From contig CAZVGL010000002.1 of assembly GCA_964626705.1 (NCBI GenBank), positions 386 through 64,385 of the forward strand: 64,000 nucleotides of DNA. Direction: 5' to 3'. A program made the translations under genes and the position numbers. Source of the DNA: an uncultured Candidatus Saccharibacteria bacterium (GTDB lineage Bacteria > Patescibacteriota > Minisyncoccia > Phycocordibacterales > UBA2163). How positions within the stretch are numbered: position 1 is the stretch's first letter; each line of letters starts with the position of its first letter. Below, in pieces: positions 1,733 through 35,995 of this stretch. Under the pieces are notes generated by a model, which saw nothing but the letters and a program-made list of their open reading frames with translations, was not told the origin of the DNA and searched no databases.

Positions 1733-2128
1733 ATGATAAAAACAGAAAACATAGCACGTGCTTTAATAGGACTTATAGAAGATGGAAATGATCCAAAAGA
1801 TGTTGTGGATAATTTTGTAAATTTTGCAAAAAAACACAATATGGAAAGTAGGATTAAAAACGTATTGAACGTACTTGAAGATAAGCTGAATAAAGAGGTA
1901 GAGCATGAAACTATGTATATAAAAACAGCGCATGATGTACCAGCGAAACTATTAACAGAGATCAAAAAGTATCTAAAGCTTCCAGAAGATGCACCAAGCC
2001 ATGTATCTCTTGATAAAAAAATACTAGGAGGCTTCAGGGTTTCATACAAAAATAAATTATATGAATACGGTTTGAAACTAAGGTTGAACAAACTAAAAAA
2101 TCACTTACACTCTAATCACTTAAAATAA
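1733..2128 (+). CDS. atpH: F0F1 ATP synthase subunit delta (short form)
   Basis: 131 aa with a C-terminal [24 protein letters not shown] typical of delta/OSCP. It lies between atpF and atpA. Confidence 0.7.
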
Positions 2129-2129
2129 T

Positions 2130-3626
2130 ATGAGCACTGAATCTTTAATAAAAAATCTAAAAAACAAAATACAAAACTTTGAGGCCACTCCTGAAGTAAA
2201 TGAGATAGGTCATGTAGTAGAAGTAAACGATGGTATAGCTAAAATATCCGGGCTTTCTAAATGCCAGATGTCAGAGATGCTTACTTTCTCAGACAATACT
2301 ATGGGTATTGCTCTAAACCTAGAAGAATACACTGTCGGAGCTATCATAATAGGTGATTACAGTAATATTAAAGAAGGAGATATTGTAAAAAGAACTGGGG
2401 AAATACTTTCTATACCAGTCGGAAATGACTTTATCGGAAGAACTGTAGACCCGCTTTGCACACCACTTGATGGTAAGGGCGACATACATAAAGATGCAGA
2501 TTATCTTGTAGAAAGGATGGCTCCTGCGGTGATGGACAGAGAACCTGTAGACCAGCCTCTAAGTACAGGGATTAAAGCTATCGATACTATGATACCTATA
2601 GGTAGAGGACAAAGAGAGCTCATAATAGGTGACAGACAGACAGGTAAAACTACAGTTGCTATAGACACAATACTTAATCAAAAAGGAAATGATATGGTGT
2701 GTGTGTATGTGGCTATAGGACAAAAGAAATCAAAAGTCGCAAGAACCATAAAGACACTCGAGGAAGCAGGTGCAATGACTTACACCACCGTAGTACTTGC
2801 AGGTTCATCAGACGGACCTGCAATGTCATACCTTGCTCCATATGCTGGAGTGACTATTGCAGAATATTTTATGGATCAAGGTAAAGATGTTCTAGTGGTT
2901 TATGATGATCTTTCAAAACACGCCGTAAGTTATAGAGAGATATCACTACTTTTGAGACGCCCTCCTGGACGAGAAGCATATCCTGGAGATGTGTTTTACC
3001 TGCATTCAAGACTACTTGAACGCGCAGCAAGAAGAAACTCTGAATCTGGTGGTGGATCTATAACAGCACTTCCTATAGTAGAGACTCAAGCAGGAGACAT
3101 CTCTGCATACATACCTACTAATGTTATTTCAATAACAGACGGGCAAATATTTTTAGAATCAGAACTATTTCACAAAGGAATAAGGCCTGCCATAAATGTA
3201 GGACTTTCTGTGTCTCGTGTGGGAGGAGCAGCACAGATCAAGTCAATGAAGAAGACTTCTGGAAAGATGAAACTTTCTCTAGCGCAGTTCAGAGAACTAG
3301 AGGCGTTTTCACAGTTTGCATCTGATCTTGATGAAGAAACAAAGAAGACTTTAAACAGAGGGCGTGTTCTTACAGAACTTTTGAAACAACCTCAGTATTC
3401 TCCAGTAAAAACTGGTCTGCAAGTAGCACTTATATACGCTGCAAACAATGGTCACATAGATGATCTTGAGATCTTCCACGTTGAAAAGTGGGGAAGTGAT
3501 TTTTCTGATTTTCTTGAAGCAAGTAAGAGTGACCTACTTAAAGATATAGAAAACTCTTGGGACGAGGATATAGAAGGGCGACTGAAAGATGCAGTAGGTG
3601 AGTTCATGCAAACCAGAGAAGAGTAG
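2130..3626 (+). CDS. atpA: F0F1 ATP synthase subunit alpha
   Basis: 498 aa. Walker A GDRQTGKT and conserved alpha-subunit blocks ([64 protein letters not shown]). Confidence 0.95.
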
Positions 3627-3647
3627 GTTGCAAAAGCTAAATTCAAA

Positions 3648-4559
3648 ATGAGTAATACAAAACTAATCAAAACAAAGATGGCCTCCGTAGGTAATATGAA
3701 AAAGATTACCAAAGCAATGGAGATGGTCTCAAGAAGTAAGATGAAGAAAGACGTCGGTCTTGCTGTTAATACGCGTGCATATGCTACACGCGCACTTGAG
3801 CTTATGGTTAGTCTCTCTAATGAAACTATGGAGAAAAACCAGTTTCTAATAGCACCCAAAAATACTGATAAAGTACTTATAATACATATTGCATCTAATA
3901 AAGGGCTTTGTGGTGGATACAACTCTTCATCTCTTAGAGCTCTAAATAGTTATTTAATAAGAAGAAGTGATGAAGTAGAGTTTATAACAGTTGGCAAGTA
4001 TGCAAAAAGGCATGCAGAAAATAGTGGGCGAACTACTTTAGAAAAGTTTGAAGACTTCCCAGAAACACCTAAAGTAGAAGATGTGACTGAACTTGGAGAT
4101 CTTGTAATAAAGAAATTCTTATCAGGAGAATATAAAAAAGTTTTGATCTCTTACACAAAGTACGTCTCTGCATTTCATCAGGTACCTACTATACGAAAGA
4201 TCTTGCCACTTTCTTCTATGAGTTTGAAAAACGTAATAGATGAACTTGGTGTTGTAGATACTGGTGAAGAAAACATCGAAGAAGTAGATATAAAGAACCC
4301 CAAGCAATACATATATGAACCAAATGAAGACGCTATTTTAAATATAGTAGTACCAAGACTTGCAAAGCTTCAGATTTATCAAGCATTACTAGAGTCAAAT
4401 GCAAGTGAACAGAGCTCTAGGATGGTAGCGATGAAGAATGCGACAGACAATGCAGACAAGATGGGTAAAGAATTACTCTTAAGTTACAACAAAGCTCGGC
4501 AGGCGGGTATTACAAAAGAGATACTGGAGATCGCGGCCGGTGCAGACGCAGTAAGTTGA
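3648..4559 (+). CDS. atpG: F0F1 ATP synthase subunit gamma
   Basis: 303 aa. N-terminal IKTKMASVGNMKKITKAMEMVSRSKM and C-terminal NKARQAGITKEILEI are hallmark gamma-subunit termini. Confidence 0.9.
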   Translation: MSNTKLIKTKMASVGNMKKITKAMEMVSRSKMKKDVGLAVNTRAYATRALELMVSLSNETMEKNQFLIAPKNTDKVLIIHIASNKGLCGGYNSSSLRALNSYLIRRSDEVEFITVGKYAKRHAENSGRTTLEKFEDFPETPKVEDVTELGDLVIKKFLSGEYKKVLISYTKYVSAFHQVPTIRKILPLSSMSLKNVIDELGVVDTGEENIEEVDIKNPKQYIYEPNEDAILNIVVPRLAKLQIYQALLESNASEQSSRMVAMKNATDNADKMGKELLLSYNKARQAGITKEILEIAAGADAVS

Positions 4560-4584
4560 TAATTAATAATTTCGTAAAATATAA

Positions 4585-5979
<1,395 letters not shown>

Positions 5980-6016
5980 CACGGAGGTTCAACCTCCGTG
6001 TTAGAAATATAATGAG

Positions 6017-6277
6017 ATGAATAAAATCAATTTGGAAATAGTTACTCTAGAAGGAGTGGCTTATAAAGAAGAAGTAGTATCAGTAACACTGTCTACAGAA
6101 AGTGGTATGGTAGGTATCTTTGCTAATCACACTCCACTTGTGTCTATTATAAAAGAAGGGGAGATTGTAATAAAAGAAGAAGACGGCACAGTGCGTTTTA
6201 GAACATCAGAAGGAGTGCTCGAAGTCCGCCCCAAAAGCGAAGTGATACTTGTTGTAGACAAAGTAGAAAAAATTTAA
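6017..6277 (+). CDS. atpC: F0F1 ATP synthase subunit epsilon, N-terminal beta-sandwich domain only
   Basis: 86 aa matching the epsilon N-domain (LEIVTLEGVAYKEEVVSV...GMVGIFANHTPL). The usual C-terminal two-helix domain is absent. Confidence 0.75.
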   Translation: MNKINLEIVTLEGVAYKEEVVSVTLSTESGMVGIFANHTPLVSIIKEGEIVIKEEDGTVRFRTSEGVLEVRPKSEVILVVDKVEKI

Positions 6278-6319
6278 ATAAAAAAACAAGGACTATGCCT
6301 TGTGTGTGAGATCGAGCTG

Positions 6320-6345
6320 CCCCACCTCATGAAGAGGTGGGGGCT
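6320..6345 (+). terminator. stem-loop downstream of atpC (ccccacctc / gaggtgggg)
   Basis: 9-bp GC-rich inverted repeat with a 5-nt loop, 40 nt after the atpC stop. The T-rich run follows only after a short spacer. Confidence 0.4.
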
Positions 6346-6700
6346 ATAGCTCCTTGTATTTTTGCGCCTTATTTACAGCTTCGACTAAGGTCTTAGAATT
6401 CATTTTAAGAATTGTGGAGTCTCAAGGATGTTTTATACTACTACTAAAATAAGTAGGAATTTCATCATTTCACTTATCTCCTTTCTACGCAAAGTTAAAA
6501 ACGGATAAAAAGAACAGGCGCTACTACATAATCCACTATTAAGTCCTGAGAGACTGTTAAAAAAATAGTGGACAAAACATTTTTTTGTTTTTCTTATTAT
6601 GCACCCCCTTTCTGGCTCTTATTATTACAGACGAGGAGTCAGTTAGAACTAAAAGTGATTATATACTCGATATATATCCTTGTCAAGAATTTTTTAAAAT

Positions 6701-6740
6701 GAAAAAGCAAGGGCTGTGCTACTTATAGCCCTTGCTTTAA
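6701..6740 (-). terminator. rho-independent terminator for the minus-strand gene 6743..7117
   Basis: 11-bp perfect stem (aagcaagggct / agcccttgctt) with an A-tract on the plus strand, which is a U-tract on the minus transcript. It lies immediately 3' of the minus-strand stop. Confidence 0.55.
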
Positions 6741-6742
6741 AC

Positions 6743-7117
6743 TCAATACTCATGCATTTGAAGGATCTGTTCATTTGGATCTTTTAGGTCAAGATGAGCT
6801 TGTGAATCTTCTGTGTAAGTCTTTTTATTTTTTACACAAAGAGTTTTATCAATTTCTTCTTCAACAACCTCCTCTTTCTCCTTATGCTTACCGAAGAATG
6901 AACCTACGGCTGATCTGTAATACTTAGAATTTGATGACAATTCTAACTCCGTAATACATTCCGTGACAAGACAAATGAACCTATGTCCTTTAATGTATGG
7001 TTTCATCTTGCCTGAAAGATTACTGACAAGCCTTCCAAACCTTTCAAAATCCATAATTTTCTGTGTACCTTCTGCAACTATCATAGCAGCAGTAAGCTCT
7101 TTAAACATACTATACAT
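6743..7117 (-). CDS. hypothetical protein (124 aa)
   Basis: Clean ORF on the minus strand with its own terminator, divergent from the infA promoter. No family recognised. Confidence 0.5.
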   Translation of the reverse strand: MYSMFKELTAAMIVAEGTQKIMDFERFGRLVSNLSGKMKPYIKGHRFICLVTECITELELSSNSKYYRSAVGSFFGKHKEKEEVVEEEIDKTLCVKNKKTYTEDSQAHLDLKDPNEQILQMHEY

Positions 7118-7264
7118 GGCTTTTTCTCCCTAAAAATTAGAAAGGCTAATGTACAAAATGCTCTCAATTCCTATCCAAAGCATACCAAGAAATATGACTT
7201 TGTCAATGTCAAGATGTGGATATTCAAGAAAACGCCTTATTATGCGGTTTTCCACGTAAAAAGC

Positions 7265-7294
7265 TTGACTTTATATGTACTATTTTGGTATTAT
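7265..7294 (+). promoter_or_regulatory. sigma70-like promoter for the infA-rpmJ-rpsM... operon
   Basis: TTGACT (7265-7270), 18-nt spacer, TGgTATTAT extended -10 (7286-7294). This leaves about a 10-nt leader to the infA ATG at 7312. Confidence 0.45.
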
Positions 7295-7311
7295 GTCCTC
7301 ATTGTCAAAAA

Positions 7312-7527
7312 ATGGTAAATAAAGAACCACAGGAAATAAACGGCGTAGTAGATGAAGCATTACCAAATGCATTGTTTAGAATAACTCTTGAGAACCAAGA
7401 GGAGCCAATTATCGGGTATCTTTCAGGAAAGATGCGTAAATACCGTATAAAAGTTCTTGTGGGGGACAAAGTAATTGTCTTAACTGATCCATACGGAGGA
7501 AAAGGAAGGATCATTAAGAGATTGTAA
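7312..7527 (+). CDS. infA: translation initiation factor IF-1
   Basis: 71 aa (GVVDEALPNALFRITLENQEEPIIGYLSGKMRKYRIKVLVGDKVIVLTDPYGGKGRIIKRL), a strong IF-1 match. The ORF-track start at 7216 is an upstream extension. The ATG at 7312 fits the promoter and the IF-1 length. Confidence 0.85.
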   Translation: MVNKEPQEINGVVDEALPNALFRITLENQEEPIIGYLSGKMRKYRIKVLVGDKVIVLTDPYGGKGRIIKRL

Positions 7528-7603
7528 AATTAAAGATCAAAAATGCAAGATGGCAACTTAAACTGTCATTTTACATTTTTGATATTTATATCTGTTTTAA
7601 TAC

Positions 7604-7717
7604 ATGAAAGTAAAAGCATCAGTAAAAAAAATATGTGCGCAGTGCAAAACTGTGAGAAGAAAACGTCGTGTGTGTGTGATTTGTACGAACCCACGTCATA
7701 AACAAAGACAAGGATAA
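7604..7717 (+). CDS. rpmJ: 50S ribosomal protein L36
   Basis: 37-aa [40 protein letters not shown]. It is below the ORF-track size cut-off, has the classic L36 zinc-ribbon sequence, and sits between infA and rpsM. Confidence 0.85.
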
Positions 7718-10184: not shown

Positions 10185-10541
10185 ATGCGACATCATAACA
10201 AAAACAAAAAGTTTGGGAGAGTAAGAAAACAAAGAACAGCACTTATGCGTTCTCTTGCACGCTCTTTAATATTGCACGATAGAATACAAACAACAGAAGC
10301 AAAAGCAAAAGCTTTACGACCATTTATAGAAAAACTTATTACAAAAGGTAAAGATGGGTCAATAGCAGCAAGACGACTTATATTAAGTAGACTTGGTGGA
10401 AGCACTGATGCAACAACTAAACTATTTGATACACTATCTCCAAAATACAAAGAAAGGACTGGTGGTTATACAAGAGTTACAAAAACTGGTACTAGAGTAG
10501 GAGATGCGGCAAAAGAAGCTATAATAGAGTTTGTAAAATAA
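10185..10541 (+). CDS. rplQ: 50S ribosomal protein L17
   Basis: 118 aa: MRHHNKNKKFGRVRKQRTALMRSLARSLILHDRIQTTEAKAKALRPFIEKLIT. Confidence 0.9.
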   Translation: MRHHNKNKKFGRVRKQRTALMRSLARSLILHDRIQTTEAKAKALRPFIEKLITKGKDGSIAARRLILSRLGGSTDATTKLFDTLSPKYKERTGGYTRVTKTGTRVGDAAKEAIIEFVK

Positions 10542-10545
10542 AATT

Positions 10546-10893
10546 ATGAAAAAGATAGAGATAAATGCAGAAGGAGAAAAACTAGGACGAATCGCTACAA
10601 AAGCGGCGGCATTTTTGATTGGCAAAAACGATGTTTCATTTGCACGAAATAAAGTTCTAGACATAGAGGTTAAGGTTATAAACGTATCAAAAATGGATGT
10701 TTCAGATAATAAGAAAGATAGTAAATTATACAAACATTATACGGGATATCCGGGAGGACTGAGGGAAGAGAAAATGGGAAAGATTATAACTAAAAAGGGA
10801 TATGGGGAAACAGTAAAAAAGGCAGTGTACGGTATGCTACCACATAACAAACTTAGACCAATAAGAATGAAGCTATTAACTACAGAAGAATAA
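10546..10893 (+). CDS. rplM: 50S ribosomal protein L13
   Basis: 115 aa: IDAEGQ-type N-terminus (INAEGEKLGRIATKAAAFLIGK), plus YKHYTGYPGGLRE and GMLPHNKL. Confidence 0.9.
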   Translation: MKKIEINAEGEKLGRIATKAAAFLIGKNDVSFARNKVLDIEVKVINVSKMDVSDNKKDSKLYKHYTGYPGGLREEKMGKIITKKGYGETVKKAVYGMLPHNKLRPIRMKLLTTEE

Positions 10894-10894
10894 T

Positions 10895-11317
10895 ATGACA
10901 ACGAAAGATAAACAAAAAATATCATCTACTCACTATATAGAAGCTATAGGTAGAAGAAAGAACGCCATAGCTCGCGTGCGTATTTTCACTGGGAGTAAAA
11001 ATGCTTATAAAATAAACGACCGAACTCTTGAAGACTATTTCCCAGTTAATGAAACTCAAAATAATATAAAAAAAGTATTTGAAGTTGTTGATATTCCTGA
11101 GAAGTTTGATGTATCAGTTCATGTGAAAGGTGGTGGAGTATCTGCACAATCAGATGCTATATTACTTGGTATTGCAAGATCACTTATATTATTTGATCCA
11201 GAACTTAGAGACACTCTTAAAAAAGAAGGATACCTGAAACGAGATGCTAGAGTAAAAGAAAGAAAGAAACCAGGACTCAAGAAAGCTCGAAAAGCCTCAC
11301 AATGGAGTAAACGATAA
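10895..11317 (+). CDS. rpsI: 30S ribosomal protein S9
   Basis: 140 aa ending ...ARKASQWSKR (canonical S9 C-terminus). Contains GRRKNAIARVRI. Confidence 0.9.
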   Translation: MTTKDKQKISSTHYIEAIGRRKNAIARVRIFTGSKNAYKINDRTLEDYFPVNETQNNIKKVFEVVDIPEKFDVSVHVKGGGVSAQSDAILLGIARSLILFDPELRDTLKKEGYLKRDARVKERKKPGLKKARKASQWSKR

Positions 11318-11323
11318 TCTACT

Positions 11324-11881
11324 ATGAAGAAAAAGCTCAACAAAACAAAAGAAGAAATAGAAGATGTTGTGTTTGATGAAATTGAAGAAAGTGGTACTGG
11401 AACTATAAAAAAGTTGCGAGATAAGTTGAAGATTTGCGTTGAGGAAAAACAAGCATACTTGGACGGCTGGCAAAGGTCAAAGGCTGATTTTGTAAATGCA
11501 AGAAAGAAAGATGAGGAAATGCGTACAAACCTTGTATCATTTGCAAAAGAGGGTTTGATATTAGATCTTCTGACTTCAGTTGATAACTTCGATATGGCAT
11601 TTGCAAATAAAGAAGTCTGGGAGAGTGTTGATAAAAATTGGAGAATAGGGATAGAACACATTCATTCACAACTTTTAAAAACCTTAGAAGAGCACGGACT
11701 TGAGCAGTTTGACCCACTTGGAGAGCAGTTTGACCCAACACGTCATGATTCAATAGAAACTGTAGTTGTAGAAAAGAAGACAGATGATCATAAAGTAGTT
11801 GAGGTAATACAAAAAGGATATATATTAGGTGGAAAAGTAATACGTCCTGCGAAAGTAAAAGTAGGACAATTAGAAGTTTAA
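11324..11881 (+). CDS. grpE: nucleotide exchange factor GrpE
   Basis: 185 aa with a coiled-coil N-terminus. GrpE blocks [19 protein letters not shown] and [11 protein letters not shown]. Immediately precedes dnaK. Confidence 0.85.
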
Positions 11882-15016: not shown

Positions 15017-15046
15017 CAACAGTTTACTTTTGTAAACTGTTTTTTA
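15017..15046 (+). terminator. rho-independent terminator after dnaJ
   Basis: Stem aacagtttac / gtaaactgtt with a T-run. It is immediately followed by TATAAT (15051-15056) positioned 8 nt upstream of the next ATG. Confidence 0.55.
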
Positions 15047-15064: not shown

Positions 15065-15598
15065 ATGAATTCAGTACAAAATTTATTTGCAAGCTCTACA
15101 GGGAGCGCATTAGAGACAGTTACAAACTTGTCGCTTGATACAATTATTTTAATTGTTATCTTTTTCTTATTCTTTATATACGGATTTAAATTTGGTAAGC
15201 GTAAGATCATATCTTTAATGCTTTCTTTGTATGCTTCGATCCCTATTGTACTTTTTTTCCCGTACTTACAGAAAATCGCATTCTTTGGCAACACTGAGAA
15301 GGCGGTACTATATTCACAGATTGGGCTTTTTGTATTGGTGATAATTCTTATAAATGTAGTGCTAAGCAGAATAGTGAGTTTCGAACTCTACCACAGAGGC
15401 TTAAGAAGGCTAATAGAAAATGGTTTTCTTGCAGCAGCTTCTGGCGGACTTCTTATAGCTATTTCATATCATATAATAAAAATATCAGAACTATATGATT
15501 TCGCGAGACCGATAGATGCATTATTTGCATCTACAACGCTCTTTTTCTGGTGGCTCATAGCACCACTTGTAGTTGTTTTCTTTACGACAAGAAGATGA
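15065..15598 (+). CDS. small polytopic membrane protein, possibly CvpA-like
   Basis: 177 aa with 4-5 predicted TM helices. Family assignment is tentative. Confidence 0.4.
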   Translation: MNSVQNLFASSTGSALETVTNLSLDTIILIVIFFLFFIYGFKFGKRKIISLMLSLYASIPIVLFFPYLQKIAFFGNTEKAVLYSQIGLFVLVIILINVVLSRIVSFELYHRGLRRLIENGFLAAASGGLLIAISYHIIKISELYDFARPIDALFASTTLFFWWLIAPLVVVFFTTRR

Positions 15599-15614: not shown

Positions 15615-17216
15615 ATGAATAAAAAGACCCAAAAGACAAAAGGGGCTAAAAATACAGTGATTTTGACTGGGAATGACCTTACGCCAGATGAAATATACAG
15701 GATCACAGAAGATCCAAAAATACAGGTAGTACTATCTCCAAAGTCATTAATAAAAGTAAGACAATCAAAAAAGTTTCTAGACAAGAAGGTTGCCACAACT
15801 GTAATATATGGGATCACTACTGGCTTTGGACCTATGGCATCACATATCATAGGTAAAAATCAATTACACGAACTTCAATATAACTTAGTGCGCTCACATG
15901 CAGTAGGATTGGGAGATCCTATAGAAGATAGATTTGTTCTTGCTGCTATGGTAGTAAGATTAAACACTCTCGTAAAAGGATACTCTGGTGTGTCAGAAGA
16001 CTTAATAGAACAATTAGCTTTTTTTATAAATAAAAGAATCTTACCTGTAATCCCAGAACATGGTTCAGTAGGAACAAGCGGTGATTTAGTACAGCTCGCC
16101 CACATCGCTATTACTTTAATAGGAGAAGGGGAAGTGGTGTTTGAAGGCAAACGAGAAAATACAGCAAACGTACTTAAAAGATTAAAAAGAAAACCTCATA
16201 CACTTGAACCGAAAGAAGGACTTGCTCTTATAAACGGCACATCTGTTATGTCTGGTATAGCAGCACTTATTGTCGACGACACAGAAAGATTACTTTCTGT
16301 GATATCACGCTCAAGTGCTTTAGCACTTGAGCTTATAAATGGTTTAAACGATGCTTTATCTGCAGAACTACATGCATTACGTCCACATGATGGTCAAAAA
16401 AAGATAGCGTCCACACTTCGTAAATTACTAGCTTCATCTACTCTTCTACATGATAGAAAACAGCTTCAATCTAGAGTAAATGTCATAGACAATGTTTATG
16501 TTACTCCAGAGCATATCCAAGATGTATATTCGTTCCGCTGTGTTGCGCAGATCTTAGGTCCAGCACTTGATATATATAAAAAAACTAAAAAAGATGTAGA
16601 AATAGAGATCAATTCAGTTACTGATAACCCCATCATAGATGTCAAAAAACAAATCTTCCTTCACGGCGGAAACTTCCATGGAGACTATATAGCAACAGCT
16701 GTTGATCAATTAAAGATAAGTATAGTAAAAATGACAATACTTTCAGAAAGAAGAATAAACTTTTTCTTAAACAGAAACGTAAACCAGTTCTTTCCACCAT
16801 TTTTAAATCTAAATCAACCAGGCCTTACACTTGCATTACAAGGTCTACAGTTTGTAGCTACATCAACAACTGCCCAAAGCCAGTCTCTTGCATTCCCTCA
16901 TTCTACACACTCTATCTCCACAAATGCAGACAATCAAGATGTAGTAAGTATGGGTACAGACGCTGCGCTTATTACAAGCAAAGCAATAAAGAATGCGTAC
17001 ACAGTACTTTCTGTAGAATATGCAACGCTTGCACAGGCTGTGGATCATTTAAATGTTTCAAACAAACTCTCACCAGCATCAAAGCTATTGTTCAAAAAGA
17101 CTAGAGGAATAGTACCTAAAATAGTAGAGGACAGAACTCTTACGAAAGAACTAACGAAACTTATTAATATGTTAGAAAAAGATGACGACCTAATACTTTC
17201 TTTCGAAGGTAACTAA
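15615..17216 (+). CDS. MIO-dependent aromatic amino acid ammonia-lyase/aminomutase (HAL/PAL/TAL family)
   Basis: N-terminal YGITTGFG block; MIO-forming tripeptide region GSVGTSGDLVQLAH (Thr-Ser-Gly where Ala-Ser-Gly is usual); full-length lyase-family similarity (about 530 aa). ATG at 15615 is preferred because the track start at 15573 overlaps the previous gene. Confidence 0.85.
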   Translation: MNKKTQKTKGAKNTVILTGNDLTPDEIYRITEDPKIQVVLSPKSLIKVRQSKKFLDKKVATTVIYGITTGFGPMASHIIGKNQLHELQYNLVRSHAVGLGDPIEDRFVLAAMVVRLNTLVKGYSGVSEDLIEQLAFFINKRILPVIPEHGSVGTSGDLVQLAHIAITLIGEGEVVFEGKRENTANVLKRLKRKPHTLEPKEGLALINGTSVMSGIAALIVDDTERLLSVISRSSALALELINGLNDALSAELHALRPHDGQKKIASTLRKLLASSTLLHDRKQLQSRVNVIDNVYVTPEHIQDVYSFRCVAQILGPALDIYKKTKKDVEIEINSVTDNPIIDVKKQIFLHGGNFHGDYIATAVDQLKISIVKMTILSERRINFFLNRNVNQFFPPFLNLNQPGLTLALQGLQFVATSTTAQSQSLAFPHSTHSISTNADNQDVVSMGTDAALITSKAIKNAYTVLSVEYATLAQAVDHLNVSNKLSPASKLLFKKTRGIVPKIVEDRTLTKELTKLINMLEKDDDLILSFEGN

Positions 17217-17220
17217 AAAC

Positions 17221-18768
17221 ATGTCAAAAGAAAAAGACATACTTAAACCATTAAAGTCGGTAGGAGAAACCTTTTCTCTACAAGACATGCTTTCTTTTGA
17301 CACAAAAGATTATATAAAGATGCTCCAAAATAAGGGCGAAGAATTTTGGATAAAAGAAGGAGAAAAGAAAGCCCTTAATCTTTTTAAAAAGGCTGCTAAA
17401 GACGTACCAGCATATAAAGAATTCCTTAAGGTACACAAGATCGACCCGACAAAGATCAAAACTATAAAAGACTTTAAAAATATTCCGATCACCACAAAAG
17501 AAAACTACATCAGTAAGTATCCTCTAGCGGACAGGAACTGGAATGGAAAACTAGAACACCTGAACATATTTGCCGTAAGCTCAGGAACAATAACTAAACC
17601 AACAATATGGCCTCGTGGGTCACTTCAAGAGTTTGAGTCAGCTATAACTCACGAAGCTCTCTTTAATGAATTGTATGAGGTTGATAAACATAAAACACTC
17701 ATAGCTATCGGGTTTCCGATGGGTGTATATATCTCTGGTATGGCTACAAGTATTCCAAGCTGGCTTATCGGAATAAAAAACCCAAGCCTTAACATACTTA
17801 CGATAGGAAACGACAAAGAGAAATTTTTAAATATTATCCCCCAACTACAAAAAGAGTACGAACAAATCCTATTTATTGGGCATCCGTTTTTTATTAAAGA
17901 TGTAATAGAGACTGGTAAAGATAGAAAGATAAAATGGGACAAAACTAAAGTAAAAATGATGTTTTGTAGCGAAGGCTTCAATGAAACATGGAGGTCGTAC
18001 TTAGCAAAACAAGTTAAAAGTGATAAAAAACTCGATATGTTTAATACTTACGGTTCATCTGAACTATTACTCATGGGTAATGAAACACCTAAGAGTGTCT
18101 TTATAAAACAGCTTGCTGAAAAGAAAAATAAAATTAGAGAGTCAGTATTTAAAAGCCCTTCTGTTCCAAATATATTTCAATATAATCCTATTAACCGCTA
18201 CATAGAGTCTGTAGATAATGACCTTATTTTTACAGCCTCAAGCGGTATACCGCTTATCCGATTTAGATTACATGACAACGGTCAGGTTATTTCAAATAAC
18301 GATATGGACGACCTTCTTACTAAGGAATGTCCGGAATGGAAAACGGAATTTAAAAAAATAAAATCAAAGAGTGCCTGGAATTTACCATTTGTTACATTAT
18401 ATGGAAGAAGCAATCAAGCGATGATCTTTTATGCAGCAAATATTTATATAGAAAACATTAATCAGGCGCTCGACCATAAACCTTTTTTAAGCAAGATTAC
18501 AGGGAAGTTTGTAATGGAAAAGAAATACTTAAAAAACATGGATCAATATCTTAATATATATATTGAGCTTGAGGAGTCTGCAGAAAAAGATAAAAAACTT
18601 GCAAAAGATATTCAAATAAAAATAGTTGATACTCTAAAAAAAGTTAACCTAGAATATGCAGATGCATCAGAGAAACTCAATAAAAACTTAGTGCCAAGGA
18701 TCGTCTTAAAACCTTACCAAGACAGGACGTATTTCAAGCTTGGGTTGAAACCAAAATATATTATATAA
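17221..18768 (+). CDS. adenylate-forming enzyme, PaaK / coenzyme F390 synthetase-like
   Basis: 515 aa. Contains an SSGTITKPTIWP AMP-binding P-loop-like motif of the type characteristic of phenylacetate-CoA ligase/F390 synthetase (SSGTTGKP). The C-terminal ~80 aa are an extension. Confidence 0.6.
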   Translation: MSKEKDILKPLKSVGETFSLQDMLSFDTKDYIKMLQNKGEEFWIKEGEKKALNLFKKAAKDVPAYKEFLKVHKIDPTKIKTIKDFKNIPITTKENYISKYPLADRNWNGKLEHLNIFAVSSGTITKPTIWPRGSLQEFESAITHEALFNELYEVDKHKTLIAIGFPMGVYISGMATSIPSWLIGIKNPSLNILTIGNDKEKFLNIIPQLQKEYEQILFIGHPFFIKDVIETGKDRKIKWDKTKVKMMFCSEGFNETWRSYLAKQVKSDKKLDMFNTYGSSELLLMGNETPKSVFIKQLAEKKNKIRESVFKSPSVPNIFQYNPINRYIESVDNDLIFTASSGIPLIRFRLHDNGQVISNNDMDDLLTKECPEWKTEFKKIKSKSAWNLPFVTLYGRSNQAMIFYAANIYIENINQALDHKPFLSKITGKFVMEKKYLKNMDQYLNIYIELEESAEKDKKLAKDIQIKIVDTLKKVNLEYADASEKLNKNLVPRIVLKPYQDRTYFKLGLKPKYII

Positions 18769-18775
18769 TAAACAA

Positions 18776-19963
18776 ATGTCAGATAAAATAAAACAATCTA
18801 TAGATAGTATTCTAGCAAAAGAAATTGAGTCAAAGCCGGTGTTTTTTAATCTAGCAGAATCAGAAGATCATAAAAGGCTAACCGCGCTTATATCTGAAGG
18901 AAAAGTTCAGCGTGTGTCAGACGACTATAGAGAACAGTTACTTGAATTGTTTGGTATAAACAATCCTTCATCTGTTCACGCTGAAGGGTTTGATGAGAAA
19001 TTTGAAGAACATCTAAAAGAGTCCGAAGAAAAAACACCCCTTTGGCAACAGGGTGTGTGGGTATACTTCCCATGGAGTTCAACCTTAACGCACATACTAC
19101 CTGAAGATGATTTTCAATTAGTAAGGACTGCTAGGAATCAGAACTTAATAAGTAAAGAGGAACAAAGTAAATTTTATAATACAACTGTAGGTATTGGGGG
19201 ACTGAGTGTTGGTTCAAGTGTTGCTTTAGGTCTTGTACTACAAGGAGGTGCCAAACATATAAAGTTTGCAGATATGGACAGACTTGCACTATCAAATACA
19301 AATAGGATTATTTCAGGAGTAGACAATCTTGGCATATTAAAAGTTGATATGACGGCACGCAAAATCTATGAGATCAATCCTTATGCACAAATAGAATTAT
19401 TTCCGGAAGGGTTAGGTAAGGAAAATATAGAAAAATTCTTTGAAGGACTTGATATTGTTATCGACGAATTGGACAATCTGGCTATTAAATATCTTATAAG
19501 AGAACAAGCGAAGAAAAATAGGATAGCAGTCGTGATGGCAGCTGACAATGGAGACAATGCTGTGGTGGATGTAGAGCGATACGATCTTGATGAAAATACA
19601 CCGTTTTTCCATGGAAGGATGGGTAATGTGTCTTATGAAGGACTTCTAGGTTTAGATAAGTTTGGTATAGGGAAGATGATTACGAAGCACGTTGGTCCTG
19701 AGAATGTGACGGAAAGGATGCAGCAATCTCTTTTTGAGATGGGGAAGACTATTGTCTCTTGGCCACAGCTCGGTGGTGCTGCAATGATAAACGGCGCAGC
19801 GGTTGCATACTGTGTTCGCAAGATTCTAAATGGACAGCCGTTAGAGGACAATAGAGCGCTTGTATCGCTGGATGAGAAGCTAGTACCAGACTATAATTCA
19901 ACCGAAAAAGTAGGGGAACGAAAACAAATAGCCGATTCATTTAAAAAAATATTTGGACTGTAA
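18776..19963 (+). CDS. ThiF/MoeB/E1-like adenylyltransferase with ~130-aa N-terminal extension
   Basis: Rossmann/E1 block TVGIGGLSVGSSVALGLVLQGGAKHIKFADMDRLALSNTNR matching the ThiF pattern G.GG.GS...D.D..SN..R. The preceding ~130 aa are not recognised. Confidence 0.7.
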   Translation: MSDKIKQSIDSILAKEIESKPVFFNLAESEDHKRLTALISEGKVQRVSDDYREQLLELFGINNPSSVHAEGFDEKFEEHLKESEEKTPLWQQGVWVYFPWSSTLTHILPEDDFQLVRTARNQNLISKEEQSKFYNTTVGIGGLSVGSSVALGLVLQGGAKHIKFADMDRLALSNTNRIISGVDNLGILKVDMTARKIYEINPYAQIELFPEGLGKENIEKFFEGLDIVIDELDNLAIKYLIREQAKKNRIAVVMAADNGDNAVVDVERYDLDENTPFFHGRMGNVSYEGLLGLDKFGIGKMITKHVGPENVTERMQQSLFEMGKTIVSWPQLGGAAMINGAAVAYCVRKILNGQPLEDNRALVSLDEKLVPDYNSTEKVGERKQIADSFKKIFGL

Positions 19964-19966
19964 GAT

Positions 19967-21022
19967 ATGCAAAACGACATAGAAAAAATCATAAAGGACG
20001 GTGTACTGGCTCCATCTGGTGAAAATGCACAACCATGGAGATTTATCGTGGAAGATAATAAAATCCATATATTTAATAAACCAGAAGTTGATCAATCTTT
20101 ATATAACTTTAAACAAAGAGGATCTTATATTGCACATGGTGCACTGATTGAAAACATTACTATAAGCTCGTCTAGATATGGATACAAAACAAATATTAAA
20201 TTATTCCCAGAAGAAGCTACTGCAAACCTTGTAGCTATTCTAACCTTAGAAAAAGCAGGTACGGAAGAAGATTCACTCTATAAGCATATCGAAAATAGAC
20301 ATACTAACAGAAAGTCATATGATGGACGAAAATTATCTAATGAACAAAAGGCGCAATTAATTAATACTGTCAAAGAGATCGACTCTGTAGAATTAGAAAT
20401 TATAGACGAAACAAAATCATTGAATATCTTAGGAGAAGCTTTGGCTGTAAATGAATTAATTCTTTTTAGCAACAAAAAGCTTCATGATTTTTTTTATGAT
20501 CATATTTTGTGGAAAGAAGACGATCAAGATAAGGCAAAAGGTTTTTATGTAAAAACTCTTGAGTTTCTTCCGCACCAACTTAAGGCAGTTAAATTATTCA
20601 AAAGCTGGTTTTTATTAAATATTTTCAATAAATTAATAAAAGTTGCGAACAAAATAGCAAAAGAAAATGCGGAGAAATATACAAAATCAGGAACCTTGAT
20701 TGCCGTTATAGTTAATGGAAATTCTAATTCTGACTTTATAAGAAAAGGAAGGGCTATGCAAAGAGTATGGCTTAAAGCAACAGAACTTGGCTTAAGTATG
20801 CACCCTTGTACTGGTACAGTATTTCTTATGGACAGAATAAAAGGCGGAGATAACAAATCTTTTTCAACCGTGCATATTGATATAATAAAAAATGCTTATA
20901 ACAACATATCCAAAATATTTAATACCGATAAAAAGTCTGCACCACTACTTTTTAGGATTGGATATGCAGACACACCTAGCGCTTGGTCACTTAGACTTAA
21001 TCCAGATATTGTTTATAAGTAA
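19967..21022 (+). CDS. nitroreductase-family FMN oxidoreductase, extended SagB/McbC-like form
   Basis: N-terminal APSGENAQPWRF (nitroreductase P-S-x-x-N-x-Q-P-W motif) and a C-terminal GRAMQRVWLKATELGLSMHP block. At 351 aa it is longer than the ~200-aa simple nitroreductases. Confidence 0.65.
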   Translation: MQNDIEKIIKDGVLAPSGENAQPWRFIVEDNKIHIFNKPEVDQSLYNFKQRGSYIAHGALIENITISSSRYGYKTNIKLFPEEATANLVAILTLEKAGTEEDSLYKHIENRHTNRKSYDGRKLSNEQKAQLINTVKEIDSVELEIIDETKSLNILGEALAVNELILFSNKKLHDFFYDHILWKEDDQDKAKGFYVKTLEFLPHQLKAVKLFKSWFLLNIFNKLIKVANKIAKENAEKYTKSGTLIAVIVNGNSNSDFIRKGRAMQRVWLKATELGLSMHPCTGTVFLMDRIKGGDNKSFSTVHIDIIKNAYNNISKIFNTDKKSAPLLFRIGYADTPSAWSLRLNPDIVYK

Positions 21023-21045: not shown

Positions 21046-22674
21046 ATGAACGTCTTAAGTAATTTAGATCTACTTTCTGTTGGACTAACTATTGCAGGTA
21101 TTGGAATACTTGGATTTGTTATATATTTTAATAATCCAAAAAGTATTACTAGCCGCTCATTTTTATTTTTTTCTATAACCTCCATACTTTGGGGTATAGC
21201 AAATTATATAAATTATAAATTTACTTCAGAAACTGCCATTCTTTGGACATTAAGAATAGCTATCTTTCTTGCTGTATGGCATGCTTTTTCTCTTTTTCAA
21301 CTATTATATGTTTTTCCAAAAAAAGAATTTAAATTTTCTAAATTATATAAATACACCTTAGTTCCATTAGTATCTATAACCTCCCTTATTCTTCTTACAC
21401 CAATAGCTTTTGTAAAAGTGACTAAATTAGCAACACCTGGAGAGGTGTCTATCGTTGCAAAAGGTCCTGGCATGATTGCATTTATTTTATTAATTATCTT
21501 TTTAGTATCAACAGCATTCTATGTTCTATTAAAGAAAATAAATAATGCAAAAGATAACGCAAAAACCCAAGCAACAATGGTATTTATAGGATTACTTATA
21601 ACGTTTGCATTAATTATAACCTTTAACTTCTTGCTACCAGCCTTATTTGATATTGTAAAGTTAATACCACTGGGTGCTATTTTTATACTGCCATTTATAT
21701 TATTTACATCGTACGCAATACTTAAGCATAAGTTATTTGATATCAAGGTCATAACCACTGCTATCATGGCATTTGTACTTTCTATTGTTACATTTCTTGA
21801 AATCATATTTTCAGAAGGACTTGACCAAATAATTTTTAGAAGTAGTGTATTTATTCTTGTACTTGTATTTAGTGTTTTTCTTCTTAAAAGTGTCCGTAAA
21901 GAAGTAGTGCAAAGGCAACAAATCGAAAAGCTTGCAGATACTTTAGCGAAAGCGAATGTGCGCCTGAAAGAACTTGATAAAATGAAGTCTGAGTTTGTTT
22001 CTTTTGCAACACATCAGATACGCGCACCTATAACTGCTATAAAAGGTTACACTTCTTTAATACTTGAAGGTTCATATGGGGAAGTGTCCAGTGAGATGAA
22101 AGAAGCTATTGATAGAATATACAAATCCAGCCAATCTCTAGCTATTGTTGTAGAAGATTATCTAAACATATCTCGCATTGAGATGGGTAGAATGAAATAT
22201 AACTTTAAAGTCTTAGATTTTGGTAAACTCATTCGTGAAATTGCTGAAGAACTAAAACCTACTGTATTAAAAGCAAAGCTTGAGATATTAATAGACATTG
22301 ATGACAGTAAAGAATACAAAGCAAAGATGGACGAGGGTAAGATGAGGCAGGTTGTTATAAACTTGATAGACAATGCAGTCAAATATACAAAAAAAGGGTC
22401 AATAAAAATATCTCTATCCAAAGACGAAAAGAGAAATAAACTGATCGCACAAATCTCAGATACAGGTATTGGTATTGAAAAAGAAACAATGCCGAAACTC
22501 TTCAAGAAATTCTCACGTGCTAAAGATGCGAATGATACAAACATACATGGTACAGGTGTCGGACTTTACATTGCTAAAGTTATGGCAGAAGCACATGACG
22601 GTGGTCGTATTTGGGCAGAGTCAGAAGGAGAAGGGAAGGGCTCACAGTTTTATATAGAAGTGGACAGTATTTAA
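21046..22674 (+). CDS. sensor histidine kinase with N-terminal 7TM-type membrane sensor domain
   Basis: About 280 aa with 7 predicted TM helices, then a coiled-coil. H-box FVSFATHQIRAPITAIKGY, N/G boxes NLIDNAVKYT and GTGVGLYIAKVMAEAHDGGRIWAESEGEGKGSQF. No adjacent response regulator. Confidence 0.85.
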   Translation: MNVLSNLDLLSVGLTIAGIGILGFVIYFNNPKSITSRSFLFFSITSILWGIANYINYKFTSETAILWTLRIAIFLAVWHAFSLFQLLYVFPKKEFKFSKLYKYTLVPLVSITSLILLTPIAFVKVTKLATPGEVSIVAKGPGMIAFILLIIFLVSTAFYVLLKKINNAKDNAKTQATMVFIGLLITFALIITFNFLLPALFDIVKLIPLGAIFILPFILFTSYAILKHKLFDIKVITTAIMAFVLSIVTFLEIIFSEGLDQIIFRSSVFILVLVFSVFLLKSVRKEVVQRQQIEKLADTLAKANVRLKELDKMKSEFVSFATHQIRAPITAIKGYTSLILEGSYGEVSSEMKEAIDRIYKSSQSLAIVVEDYLNISRIEMGRMKYNFKVLDFGKLIREIAEELKPTVLKAKLEILIDIDDSKEYKAKMDEGKMRQVVINLIDNAVKYTKKGSIKISLSKDEKRNKLIAQISDTGIGIEKETMPKLFKKFSRAKDANDTNIHGTGVGLYIAKVMAEAHDGGRIWAESEGEGKGSQFYIEVDSI

Positions 22675-22704
22675 ATAGTGCATGATAAAATCAAATATTT
22701 AATT

Positions 22705-23274
22705 ATGAAAAATATTCAAACAATCACTGAGAAATATTTTCAAATGTTTCCAGAAGATAAGAGGAGTCTAGAACACCTAACAAAACAATTAAAAAAAAGT
22801 GAGGATATTTTTAATCGCAAAAACTTTACAGGCCATGTAGTTGCAAATTCATTAGTTTTGAATTCTAAAAACGAAGTTCTGACTATATTTCACAATAAGC
22901 TAAAGATGTACATACAGCCCGGTGGGCATGTAGACCAGACAGATGAATTAGTTGTAGATGCAACCAGAAGAGAGCTTGCGGAAGAAACAGGACTAAAGGA
23001 TGTAGACTTGGATGAATGGCATAAAGAGACAAGTATTCCTATTTTTATTGAATCTCACTTAATACCGCAAAACGTTCAAAAAGAGGAGGAGGAACATTAT
23101 CATCATGATTTGATGTATATATTTAAAACAAATACAAACGATGTCGAACTACAACCAGAAGAAGTGTCGGACTATAAGTGGATTAACATAAACAAGATAT
23201 TAGAAGATGATCCAGATTCATTTATTGGCAAATCACTTACAAGAATGCTTGAACTAAATATTATAAAAATATGA
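22705..23274 (+). CDS. Nudix hydrolase
   Basis: Nudix box GGHVDQTDELVVDATRRELAEETGL (GX5EX7REUXEEXGU). ATG at 22705; an upstream in-frame GTG at 22678 is also possible. Confidence 0.8.
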   Translation: MKNIQTITEKYFQMFPEDKRSLEHLTKQLKKSEDIFNRKNFTGHVVANSLVLNSKNEVLTIFHNKLKMYIQPGGHVDQTDELVVDATRRELAEETGLKDVDLDEWHKETSIPIFIESHLIPQNVQKEEEEHYHHDLMYIFKTNTNDVELQPEEVSDYKWININKILEDDPDSFIGKSLTRMLELNIIKI

Positions 23275-23891
23275 CAAAAAATATAGAAGTTGAGGTACGT
23301 GGTATTTTAACTAAAAAAGATTACGACCAACTTAATAAAAAACTTCTTAAAGACGGTAAATTTATCTCACATAAAGACAGGGTCTTAATAGATTATTCTA
23401 CATTCATCAAAAAACAGGGTATCAAAAATAGAACTAAGGATATTAGACTAAGGGTTACAAACAAAATACCAGAGATTATAATTAAGTTAGGAAAATGGGG
23501 AGGCAACGACCAGCGTGAAGAACTATCTGTTCTAACAAAAAAAGGAAGTTTTGACACTTTGGTCAAAGCTTTTAATATTCTTGGCTATAGTAAGGGAATG
23601 CTATGTGTTCGTGACATTAAAGCATACAAATATAAAGGTGCAGAATTTGCCGTAGTAAGTATTCCTGGACATGGTTATTTTTATGAAGCTGAAAAGATTG
23701 TAAGTAACAGTAAGAAAGAAAAAGAACAAGCCAGCTTGAAGCTTGAAAAAATATGTAGTGAACTAAACCTTGAAATACTTTCAGACAAAGATCACTGTGA
23801 TTATGTAGAAAAGTTGAATAAAGAAATCAATGAAGTCTTCGATTTTAAGAACTATACAGACGATTACTTTAAAAATAGATTTAATCTTTAA
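23271..23891 (+). CDS. hypothetical protein, possible CYTH (triphosphate tunnel metalloenzyme)-like domain
   Basis: N-terminal IEVEVRGIL resembles the CYTH ExExK/R signature and the size (206 aa) is compatible. Overlaps the Nudix stop by ATGA. Weak call. Confidence 0.35.
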   Translation: MTKNIEVEVRGILTKKDYDQLNKKLLKDGKFISHKDRVLIDYSTFIKKQGIKNRTKDIRLRVTNKIPEIIIKLGKWGGNDQREELSVLTKKGSFDTLVKAFNILGYSKGMLCVRDIKAYKYKGAEFAVVSIPGHGYFYEAEKIVSNSKKEKEQASLKLEKICSELNLEILSDKDHCDYVEKLNKEINEVFDFKNYTDDYFKNRFNL

Positions 23892-34849: not shown

Positions 34850-34987
34850 GGTCGTTCCTCGAGGAGGAGTGATAGCGACGGGAGAGGTGCGACCTTGAAG
34901 GAATTGGTACAGATACCTTATTATGGTATACAAATATTAAAAGCAAAAAATCTGACTCTATGTCGGATTTTTTGGTATAATAGTTTA

Positions 34988-35995
34988 ATGTTAAAAAAGA
35001 TAGAAGATAAACAAGACAAAGGGGAAATAATTATCTACCAAACTTCTAAAAAAGAAGTCGGTTTAAAGGTACGACTTGAAAAAGATACTGTGTGGCTTGA
35101 TGCACATCAGATTTCAGAATTATTTAACATCGATAGAACAGTTATTGTCAAACATATTAGAAATGTATACAAGACTGATGAGCTAGCCGAAAAAGCAACC
35201 TGTGCAAAAATTGCACAGGTTGCGGCTGATGGGAAGATACGAAAGATGAATACTTATAACCTAGATATGATTATAAGTATTGGGTATCGTGTTAACTCCA
35301 AGAATGCTACGCAATTTAGAGTTTGGGCGACAAAGGTATTAAGACAACATATTCTACAAGGGTATACAATCAATGAAAATCGGCTTTTAGAGGCGCGAGA
35401 CAAGTTTAGAGAATTACAAACGGCTGTCAGTTTTCTACAAAATAAAGCGCAAAAAAAGCAATTAAAAGGACAAGAAAAAGAAATTCTGAATTTATTAGCT
35501 GACTATTCAAAAACACTTACTATTCTGGAACAATATGATAAAGGAAAACTTAAAACACCGAAAGGTAAAAAAGCAAGTTTTGTTCTTGAGTACGAAAAAT
35601 ATCAAGATGTAGTTTTGGAGCTTAAAAAAGAATTAATTTCTAAAAAAGAAGCAAGCGATATATTTGGCAATGACGTAACTAATAAATTTGACAGTATAAT
35701 AGCAAATCTATACCAGACATTTGGTGGAAAAGAGCTATATAAAGGACTTGAAGATAAAGCGGCGCATCTTTTGTATCTTACTATCAAAGATCACCCTTTT
35801 ACAGATGGTAACAAACGCATTGGGGCATTTTCTTTTGTATATTTTCTAGATAAAAATAATTACCTTCATCGTAAAAATGGAGAGAGAAAAATTAATGACA
35901 ATGCATTAACGGCTTTGGCGCTTCTTATTGCTGAAAGCGATCCAAAAGAAAAAGATGTTATTATAAAAATTATTATTAACCTACTACACGATTAA
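34988..35995 (+). CDS. RhuM-family N-domain fused to Fic/Doc-family domain
   Basis: N-terminal RhuM-like block (DAHQISELFNIDRTVIVKHIRNVY...FRVWATKVLRQHILQGY). C-terminal Doc-type motif HPFTDGNKRIGA (HxFx[DE]GNKR). ATG at 34988 lies 7 nt after an extended -10 TGGTATAAT. The track start at 34895 is in a GC-rich structured spacer. Confidence 0.75.
   Translation: MLKKIEDKQDKGEIIIYQTSKKEVGLKVRLEKDTVWLDAHQISELFNIDRTVIVKHIRNVYKTDELAEKATCAKIAQVAADGKIRKMNTYNLDMIISIGYRVNSKNATQFRVWATKVLRQHILQGYTINENRLLEARDKFRELQTAVSFLQNKAQKKQLKGQEKEILNLLADYSKTLTILEQYDKGKLKTPKGKKASFVLEYEKYQDVVLELKKELISKKEASDIFGNDVTNKFDSIIANLYQTFGGKELYKGLEDKAAHLLYLTIKDHPFTDGNKRIGAFSFVYFLDKNNYLHRKNGERKINDNALTALALLIAESDPKEKDVIIKIIINLLHD

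Follow-up and report, generated by a model that had tools for sequence, protein, structure and literature searches.

Results of our analysis of a 64-kb stretch of DNA (hereafter the window) from a metagenome-assembled genome of a low-GC member of Patescibacteria (Paceibacteria/Parcubacteria) indicate that two adjacent genes encode, as judged from their sequences, the separated halves of an oxazolone synthetase of the Rv1355c/TrzS-OxzB family, namely an E1-like (ThiF-like) protein and a flavoenzyme. Together with a gene for a PaaK-like ligase, they form a block of three open reading frames (ORFs) on the plus strand, at 17221-18768 (515 aa), 18776-19963 (395 aa), and 19967-21022 (351 aa), separated by gaps of 3-7 nt, exactly where the first-pass annotation of the window had placed them. 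The limits of that block proved too narrow, as an ammonia-lyase gene (15615-17216) and the gene of a histidine kinase with seven transmembrane segments (7TM; 21046-22674) are parts of the same conserved module. The E1-like/oxidase core belongs to a known family, and the operon architecture that adds a ligase, a deaminase, and a kinase to it is conserved and undescribed in the literature searched. We moderately favour a reading in which the module is not a peptide-modifying system but a small-molecule pathway around the split synthetase, leading from tyrosine via p-coumarate and an N-coumaroyl amino acid to an unsaturated oxazolone.

The assignment of the pair to the Rv1355c family is based mainly on its matches to NF005901, the NCBIfam equivalog model 'Rv1355c family protein' (722 positions, curated cutoff 476 bits). 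The E1-like protein (hereafter the ThiF protein) matches positions 8-342 of this model (E 1.4e-96, 324 bits), and the oxidase, whose gene begins 4 nt downstream of the ThiF gene, matches positions 375-713 (E 5e-57, 194 bits). Both scores are under the cutoff because each protein represents one half of the model; the two sequences concatenated in silico score 522.7 bits, with residues 16-740 aligned to model positions 8-713. In BLASTP comparisons with a Rhodococcus protein of the Rv1355c family, the ThiF protein is 37% identical over residues 80-369 (E 2e-63) and the oxidase is 22% identical (E 4e-19). A tblastn search of plasmids yielded actinobacterial 'Rv1355c family' proteins of 32-38% identity to the ThiF protein. 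Fused ThiF-oxidase forms are present in other Patescibacteria in the same gene context.

The Pfam ThiF domain occupies residues 121-256 of the 395-aa protein (E 6e-23), and the nucleotide-binding Gly-rich loop, the Arg finger, and the Mg-binding Asp are all intact. The residues GIGGLSVG (139-146), D166, R177, K189, and DELDN (D230/D233) show no variation among 18 homologues, and D233 aligns with the Asp of the motif EECDS of the Rhodococcus protein; in TrzS, the Mg-binding Asp217 is essential (PMC12856293). The WPQL motif at residues 329-332 is kept family-wide. By sequence, the best match in the PDB is TcdA (E 1.4e-14), and the closest solved structure is that of AclA from Tenacibaculum discolor (9egb), a protein on which we found no literature.

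The E1 core of the ThiF protein is preceded by a confidently modelled N-terminal extension of about 107 residues, a length roughly in line with the 130 or so residues of the first-pass annotation, in which a peptide-binding role was suggested for it. The extension, which aligns to the N-terminal part of NF005901, is a feature of the whole family and not a peculiarity of the window protein, since fused members align with it nearly throughout and share its hairpin motif. A HMMER search of a sequence library with the ThiF protein yielded 952 clusters at E<1e-30; 63 of the best 150 of them are fusions of 600-1100 aa, the alignments of which start from about query residue 15-20, and the hairpin motif W.[YF][FY]PW is found in 59 of these 63 fused and in 56 of 80 split family representatives. 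In structure comparison, no structure containing a recognition element (RRE) of peptides that are made by the ribosome and modified after translation (RiPPs) aligned beyond the E1 core. As the characterised members of the Rv1355c family use small molecules, the role of a peptide clamp (RRE) is not needed and lacks support. A split ThiF protein with the N-terminal extension is encoded also by a plasmid of Streptomyces sp. NBC_01471 (L083, positions 5917-7715; NF005901 422 bits, model positions 8-341), where the next gene encodes a GNAT acetyltransferase and not a flavin oxidase, and represents another variant of the Rv1355c family.

The oxidase is a member of the nitroreductase superfamily (PF00881/PF14512), and the earlier description of it as a SagB-like dehydrogenase is correct at this level but not as regards SagB proper. 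More specifically, it matches the flavin mononucleotide (FMN) oxidoreductases of the Acg family (E 2e-41) and, among ThiF-nitroreductase fusion families including Rv1355c, the C-terminal halves. Its best PDB match by sequence is Acg (2ymv), and no SagB model of NCBIfam matched it at E<=0.01. The APSxxNxQPW motif and residues R111, N114, and R115 are common to the oxidase and the actinobacterial fusions, and motifs of the FMN type are kept.

The functions of this family are known from several bacteria. In TrzS (Rv1355c), the ThiF-like domain cyclises N-acyl-tryptophan with ATP, and the fused flavin oxidase desaturates the ring with O2 to give N-acyl tryptazolone (PMC12856293). Chemistry of the same type is carried out on N-acyl tyrosine in M. 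tuberculosis by TyzB/TyzC (PMC10404671) and in Pseudoalteromonas rubra by OxzB (10.1101/2020.06.11.147165; reviewed in PMC12596934), and a ThiF and nitroreductase pair accompanies the producers of N-acyl dehydrotyrosines (PMC12479983). In these enzymes, the cyclodehydratase is the ThiF domain, with a small N-acyl amino acid as its substrate. Oxazolone synthetases work without YcaO and without a peptide substrate, which explains why neither YcaO nor a precursor gene accompanies the block. The logic of the block, which at first pass looked new, is therefore not so with regard to an E1-like protein and a nitroreductase acting without YcaO, as OxzB, TyzB/TyzC, and TrzS already represent it, but the replacement of an acyltransferase by a ligase was not found in the literature. 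Neither a PaaK-fold ligase in this role, nor an interchangeable deaminase, nor a linked 7TM kinase was found described in the oxazolone literature searched, and searches linking oxazolone, or ThiF with nitroreductase, to Patescibacteria returned papers on oxazolone colitis or nothing.

The TrzAS systems of M. tuberculosis, M. smegmatis, and Rhodococcus (PMC12856293) resemble the window pair in having a ThiF-like cyclase with the N-terminal extension and WPQL, and an Acg-like flavin oxidase. The window operon, by contrast, encodes the halves of the synthetase in two genes and has a PaaK-fold ligase and an ammonia-lyase in place of the TrzA N-acyltransferase; a 7TM histidine kinase is linked to it, and its host belongs to Patescibacteria. 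In the OxzAB and TyzACB systems, ThiF-dependent cyclisation with ATP is likewise combined with desaturation of an N-acyl aromatic amino acid by a nitroreductase-superfamily enzyme, and TyzB/TyzC are split as the window pair is. However, these systems use fatty acyl-CoA and the OxzA/TyzA acyltransferase, TyzB with its 318 aa falls far short of the 395 aa of the window protein, and a ligase, lyase, or kinase is not reported with them. The NasY-ThiF-nitroreductase clusters for stieleriacines, thalassotalic acids, and kyonggic acids (PMC12479983) also contain the ThiF and nitroreductase pair, but there, an N-acyl amino acid synthase using fatty acyl donors provides the acyl amino acid.

The three ORFs sit inside a tightly packed run of plus-strand genes, which starts past the dnaJ hairpin and encodes, in this order, a 177-aa membrane protein, the ammonia-lyase, the ligase, the E1-like protein, the nitroreductase-like protein, the 7TM histidine kinase, a Nudix hydrolase, and a 206-aa protein, with intergenic gaps of 3-23 nt in the block. 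The features of this region are as follows:

15018-15041, plus strand: terminator-like hairpin 3' of dnaJ, with a 10-bp stem and then TTTTT, forming the upstream boundary of the transcription unit
15065-15598, plus strand: 177-aa multi-pass membrane protein without a family match, between dnaJ and the lyase gene
15615-17216, plus strand: aromatic amino-acid ammonia-lyase of the 4-methylidene-imidazol-5-one (MIO) type (PF00221, E 7e-156)
17221-18768, plus strand: predicted divergent PaaK-fold adenylate-forming ligase of the lyase-associated subtype (profile, motif, and model evidence)
18776-19963, plus strand: predicted ThiF/E1-like ATP-dependent cyclase, corresponding to the N-terminal half of an oxazolone synthetase of the Rv1355c/TrzS type that is split in the window (NF005901)
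19967-21022, plus strand: predicted flavin-dependent oxidase (nitroreductase superfamily, Acg/TyzC-like), corresponding to the C-terminal half of the same synthetase (NF005901)
21046-22674, plus strand: sensor histidine kinase with an N-terminal 7TM domain (PF16927 HisKA_7TM, PF00512, PF02518)
22678-23274, plus strand: Nudix hydrolase, after the kinase with no terminator between them
23271-23891, plus strand: 206-aa protein with a weak CYTH match (E 0.003)

A terminator scan revealed no terminator-like sites on the plus strand between 15600 and 23500, and, except for the dnaJ terminator, both promoter and terminator scans gave results at the background level. The gene of the 177-aa membrane protein is probably the first gene of the transcript. 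Homologues of this protein are encoded directly after dnaJ in four other loci, and its membership in the module is uncertain, as its placement may be a matter of dnaJ synteny. The genes of the Nudix hydrolase and the 206-aa protein are possibly co-transcribed with the module, but neither is conserved with it: the 206-aa family was found in only one of the related loci described below (L022), and the Nudix gene was matched in none.

Precomputed Pfam calls on sister contigs, which cover most of the window, contain no YcaO (PF02624), TfuA, or N-acyltransferase. They contain no response regulator either, whereas elsewhere the kinase homologues have receiver-only regulators (120-145 aa) on their flanks. 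The window has 399 small ORFs (30-130 aa), not one of which ends in GG; no short ORF rich in Cys, Ser, or Thr occurs within 14.9-23 kb, and no rhodanese domain or sulfurtransferase is encoded near the block. The absence of YcaO and of a precursor peptide from the block and its flanks, remarked upon at first pass, is thus borne out.

The description of the 515-aa protein as a PaaK-like adenylating enzyme is supported by our results. The protein has no match in Pfam. It matches the PaaK model TIGR02155 with an E value of 3.9e-13 (48.7 bits, the equivalog cutoff of 646 bits not being reached) and the FlxY model NF053551 with an E value of 2e-10, under the family cutoff, and a profile of 25 ligase sequences retrieved only PaaK structures from the PDB (best 4r1l, E 2.9e-12). 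Its AlphaFold2 model (pLDDT 90.7) was matched by Foldseek to PaaK1 (2y27) with an E value of 1.4e-21 and a TM-score of 0.77, and superposes on PaaK1, BT_0428, NatL2, AjiA1, HCL, and ClxA. The motifs SSGT.(G/T).P (P-loop), YGSSE, RF.LHD.G, and GRS, as well as the C-terminal Lys510, are invariant across 25 homologues. Together, the profiles, motifs, and model indicate that the protein is a complete adenylate-forming enzyme of the PaaK fold. A kinship to GH3 was also considered and proved too weak to be of use: GH3 (PF03321) did not match the ligase and matched only 3 of the 25 homologues, weakly (best 2e-5), and AtGH3.15 is just a distant structural neighbour (E 5e-11).

Since the ligase represents a distant branch of PaaK, its substrate and acceptor cannot be read from the family name. 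Certain PaaK-family ligases, such as NatL2 and ClxA, make ester or amide bonds without coenzyme A (CoA) (PMC7204872, PMC9400959, PMC12519233). These enzymes of benzoxazole pathways share the fold with the window ligase (E ~1e-17 and 5e-15) and join an adenylated aryl acid to a nucleophile with no need of CoA; this is the activity that we propose for the window ligase. They differ from it in their substrates, which are aminohydroxybenzoates, in the lack of a ThiF partner, and in sequence, being only about 14-15% identical to it.

The best NCBIfam match of the lyase is the FlxA tyrosine ammonia-lyase (TAL) model NF053541, with a score of 581 bits, below the cutoff of 700. The lyase was aligned with HutH of Priestia and Klebsiella, the tyrosine aminomutase (TAM) CmdF, and a FlxA-like enzyme of Persicobacter. 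The lyases of the candidate phyla radiation (CPR) retain the switch His (SHA), which excludes phenylalanine ammonia-lyases specific for Phe. They carry DNQDVVSM in place of the HutH motif NQEDHVSM, and have GFGPMA and GDLVQLAH in common with the Persicobacter enzyme. The 'SH' of NLVRSHAVG was rejected as a mark of histidine ammonia-lyase (HAL), as HAL, TAL, and TAM all have its His; the motifs that do discriminate between them are at other sites and are TAL-like. Judging from these motifs, the lyase is most likely a TAL that yields p-coumarate. A TAL is also paired with a PaaK-like ligase in FlxA/FlxY at the start of the flexirubin pathway (NF053541, NF053551), but the window lyase and ligase both score below the cutoffs of these families, and the genes next to them in the window are not polyketide or aryl-polyene genes but those of the ThiF/oxidase pair. 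As a separate observation, the MIO-forming triad is Thr-Ser-Gly (GTSGDL), and not the usual Ala-Ser-Gly, in the window lyase and in the CPR lyases of loci L013, L034, L047-L050, L070, L075, and L077.

The conservation of the module was assessed in a sample of 80 related loci from GTDB species representatives, all of them Patescibacteria, onto which the window proteins were mapped and in which all ORFs were clustered. The ligase gene is located immediately upstream of the ThiF gene in 61 of 74 loci, and the oxidase gene immediately downstream of it in 47 of 71. A homologous 7TM histidine kinase is encoded on the same strand, at most 3 kb downstream, in 45 of 64 loci, and receiver-only response regulators often adjoin the module. 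A deaminating enzyme is encoded at most two genes from the ligase in 38 of 71 loci, and its type varies: besides the window, nine loci have a MIO lyase, 17 an ELFV dehydrogenase (with the tryptophan dehydrogenase ScyB as its best NCBIfam match), eight a HisC-like class I/II aminotransferase, and four an IlvE-type class IV aminotransferase. The upstream genes of the deaminase-free loci were considered as possible parts of the module and discarded, being unrelated housekeeping genes.

The subtype of the ligase tracks the presence of the lyase exactly. All nine lyase-linked ligases form one cluster, with 50% identity within it and about 31% to the rest, and all other ligases form a second family, while the ThiF protein is not partitioned by lyase context (60-62% identity throughout). 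It thus appears that the acyl part of the product differs between loci, with almost no change in the cyclase. The acid activated by the second ligase subtype may be a 2-oxo acid, or another acid, with the dehydrogenase or aminotransferase supplying the amino acid.

The module is found in distant CPR lineages as well. One locus (L096, positions 153-2927, P0279) encodes a natural fusion of ThiF and ammonia-lyase of 924 aa, followed by the ligase, oxidase, and 7TM kinase. In Doudnabacteria and Roizmanbacteria the order is a response regulator, an ELFV dehydrogenase, the ligase, a fused ThiF/oxidase, in some cases a hydrolase, the histidine kinase, and a response regulator; the Roizmanbacteria ligase is 33% identical to that of the window (E 2e-97). 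The 7TM kinase adjoins the fused forms in both these lineages and the module in L096. Beside the long fusions from outside the CPR, P0291 (Chloroflexota) and P0382, neither ligase nor kinase was seen. The unit conserved across distant CPR lineages consists of a deaminase, a PaaK-fold ligase, an oxazolone synthetase, and a two-component sensor. In a further locus (L098), the order is lyase, ligase, fused ThiF/oxidase, and methyltransferase. The Stieleria clusters likewise have a methyltransferase, and this parallel suggests that the end product might be a ring-opened dehydro-N-acyl amino acid. A family of about 305 aa without a Pfam or NCBIfam match is encoded between the oxidase and the kinase in nine loci (L004, positions 10459-11370, and eight others); it may be an accessory tailoring enzyme.

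The pathway that we propose retains the order of events suggested at first pass, in which an adenylating enzyme precedes an E1-like activator of a carboxylate and FMN-dependent oxidation. Based on homology and motifs, the lyase would strip ammonia from L-tyrosine to give p-coumaric acid. The PaaK-fold ligase, as the gene context suggests, would adenylate p-coumarate and pass the acyl group, either directly as an amide ligase or via CoA, onto the alpha-amino group of an amino acid, yielding an N-acyl amino acid. The ThiF protein would then adenylate the carboxylate of this compound, and attack by the amide oxygen would give a 2-substituted oxazol-5(4H)-one, as biochemically shown for TrzS, TyzB, and OxzB, to which the protein is linked by homology, family membership, and conserved motifs. 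By homology, and with its FMN motifs conserved, the oxidase would desaturate the C-alpha/C-beta bond to a 4-ylidene-oxazolone, which may ring-open to an N-acyl dehydroamino acid (PMC12479983). Speculatively, the 7TM histidine kinase could sense the product or control its synthesis.

Several observations weigh against this pathway. No N-acyl amino acid synthase is present at the module or recurrent in the 80 related loci, nor was one found in L092, L094, L096, and L098, and amide formation by the ligase is suggested by gene context only. In about half of the loci, the ligase has no adjoining deaminase. The identity to the named actinobacterial plasmid members of the Rv1355c family is just 22-38%, and the substrate could differ. 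The Rhodococcus and Mycolicibacterium fusions share an Arg, in the motif ELRWP, at a position where the CPR oxidases have L, N, or S. Desaturation by TyzC and TrzS requires O2, yet many Patescibacteria live at low oxygen. Finally, the conservation of the ThiF protein is unusual for an enzyme of specialised metabolism. In the related loci, which were picked by means of ThiF peptide patterns and are hence somewhat biased in this comparison, its median identity to the window protein is 65.7%, compared with 73% for DnaK, 55% for DnaJ, 46-50% for L13/S9, 32% for the ligase, and 37% for the oxidase. Across loci L002-L081 it is better conserved than DnaJ, TrpRS, AspRS, L13, and S9, with only DnaK higher and the partner enzymes at 32-41%. 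Such housekeeping-level conservation would also fit a macromolecular substrate.

Possibly, though we think it rather unlikely, the end chemistry is as proposed, with the PaaK-like enzyme serving as an ordinary acyl-CoA ligase and an unlinked N-acyltransferase encoded elsewhere making the N-acyl amino acid. The nearest structures include the true CoA ligases PaaK1, BT_0428, and HCL, and ligases of the FlxY type are annotated as CoA ligases. Such an acyltransferase is, however, neither among the Pfam calls of the window nor recurrent in the loci examined, although the other steps are tightly clustered, and the CoA-independent ligases of the PaaK family mentioned above (PMC7204872, PMC9400959) provide a precedent for direct coupling.

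We consider it less probable still that the ThiF protein acts on a macromolecule, either on a nucleoside in tRNA, in the manner of TcdA, or on the C-terminus of a protein, and that the ligase and oxidase modify the same target with no free metabolite formed. The near-housekeeping conservation of the protein is in agreement with such a role, as is the conserved synteny of its gene among housekeeping genes (dnaK/dnaJ, trpS/aspS); TcdA, its best PDB match by sequence, likewise forms a ring of the oxazolone type, on t6A (PMC12596934). On the other hand, the full-length match of the protein to the Rv1355c/TrzS family reaches 324 bits, compared with 46 bits for TcdA, no carrier or precursor gene is present in the window, and the variable deaminase together with the co-varying ligase indicates a small acid as the substrate.

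The occurrence of E1-like proteins together with nitroreductase-superfamily proteins in clusters for thiazole/oxazole-modified microcins (TOMMs; e.g., SagBCD and McbBCD), where formation of an azole-type heterocycle is followed by FMN-dependent oxidation, could point to an azoline-type RiPP system with YcaO and the precursor peptide encoded elsewhere. This explanation is very improbable and already largely refuted. The TOMM systems need YcaO, a ribosomal precursor, and a peptide-binding E1-like partner, none of which is present in the window; YcaO is absent also from the Pfam-annotated related contexts, as is a precursor from the three of them that are of other lineages, and no extra family recurs in the 80 Patescibacteria loci. 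Moreover, the oxidase matches the Acg/TyzC-type group of flavin-dependent oxidases and not the SagB models, and the pair exceeds the Rv1355c-family threshold. The first-pass conclusion that the block is not an ordinary TOMM system is in accord with these results. Activation of a small protein that ends in GG, as in sulfur-carrier or thiocarboxylate systems of the ThiF/MoeB type, is hardly credible, as the similarity to ThiF/MoeB models is generic (E 1e-16 to 1e-19) with equivalog scores far under the cutoffs, and the lack of a ThiS/MoaD-like GG protein among the small ORFs and of a sulfurtransferase nearby leaves the thiocarboxylation suggested at first pass unsupported.

In Patescibacteria, genomes are tiny and few biosynthetic pathways are known. 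The retention of this five- to six-gene module across Paceibacteria, Doudnabacteria, and Roizmanbacteria implies that it is likely important to the biology of these bacteria. Tentatively, and with considerable doubt, the small-molecule pathway may be viewed as a lineage-wide signalling cassette, in which an unsaturated oxazolone or a ring-opened N-acyl dehydroamino acid, with its acyl part diversified by swaps of deaminase and ligase, would be perceived by the 7TM kinase and receiver-only regulators. Were this so, bacteria credited with almost no specialised metabolism would possess a quorum- or host-sensing system, and natural oxazolones would have their first physiological role. Signalling or stress adaptation has been proposed as a role of the M. 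tuberculosis oxazolones by the authors who described them (PMC12856293), and a role in signalling becomes directly testable with an oxazolone module that is tied to a sensor kinase in many genomes. If the ligase is a CoA-independent N-acyl-amino-acid ligase, N-acyl amino acids would be accessible by a new route, and the enzyme would be useful in biocatalysis. As regards annotation, such pairs of a 'ThiF family adenylyltransferase' and a 'nitroreductase' should not be taken for genes of thiamine or molybdopterin synthesis or of TOMM systems.

Other genes of the window and its vicinity deserve a brief mention. A protein with a Fic/RhuM domain (34895-35995) and, on the minus strand, an adjacent VKOR and DoxX membrane redox pair (40365-41253) are encoded among housekeeping genes. 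On a sister contig, outside the window and upstream of the ATP synthase operon that opens it (L087, positions 1-7548), there is an island with genes for a ThsB-like TIR protein, a Bsp6I-like restriction-modification pair, and a serine recombinase.

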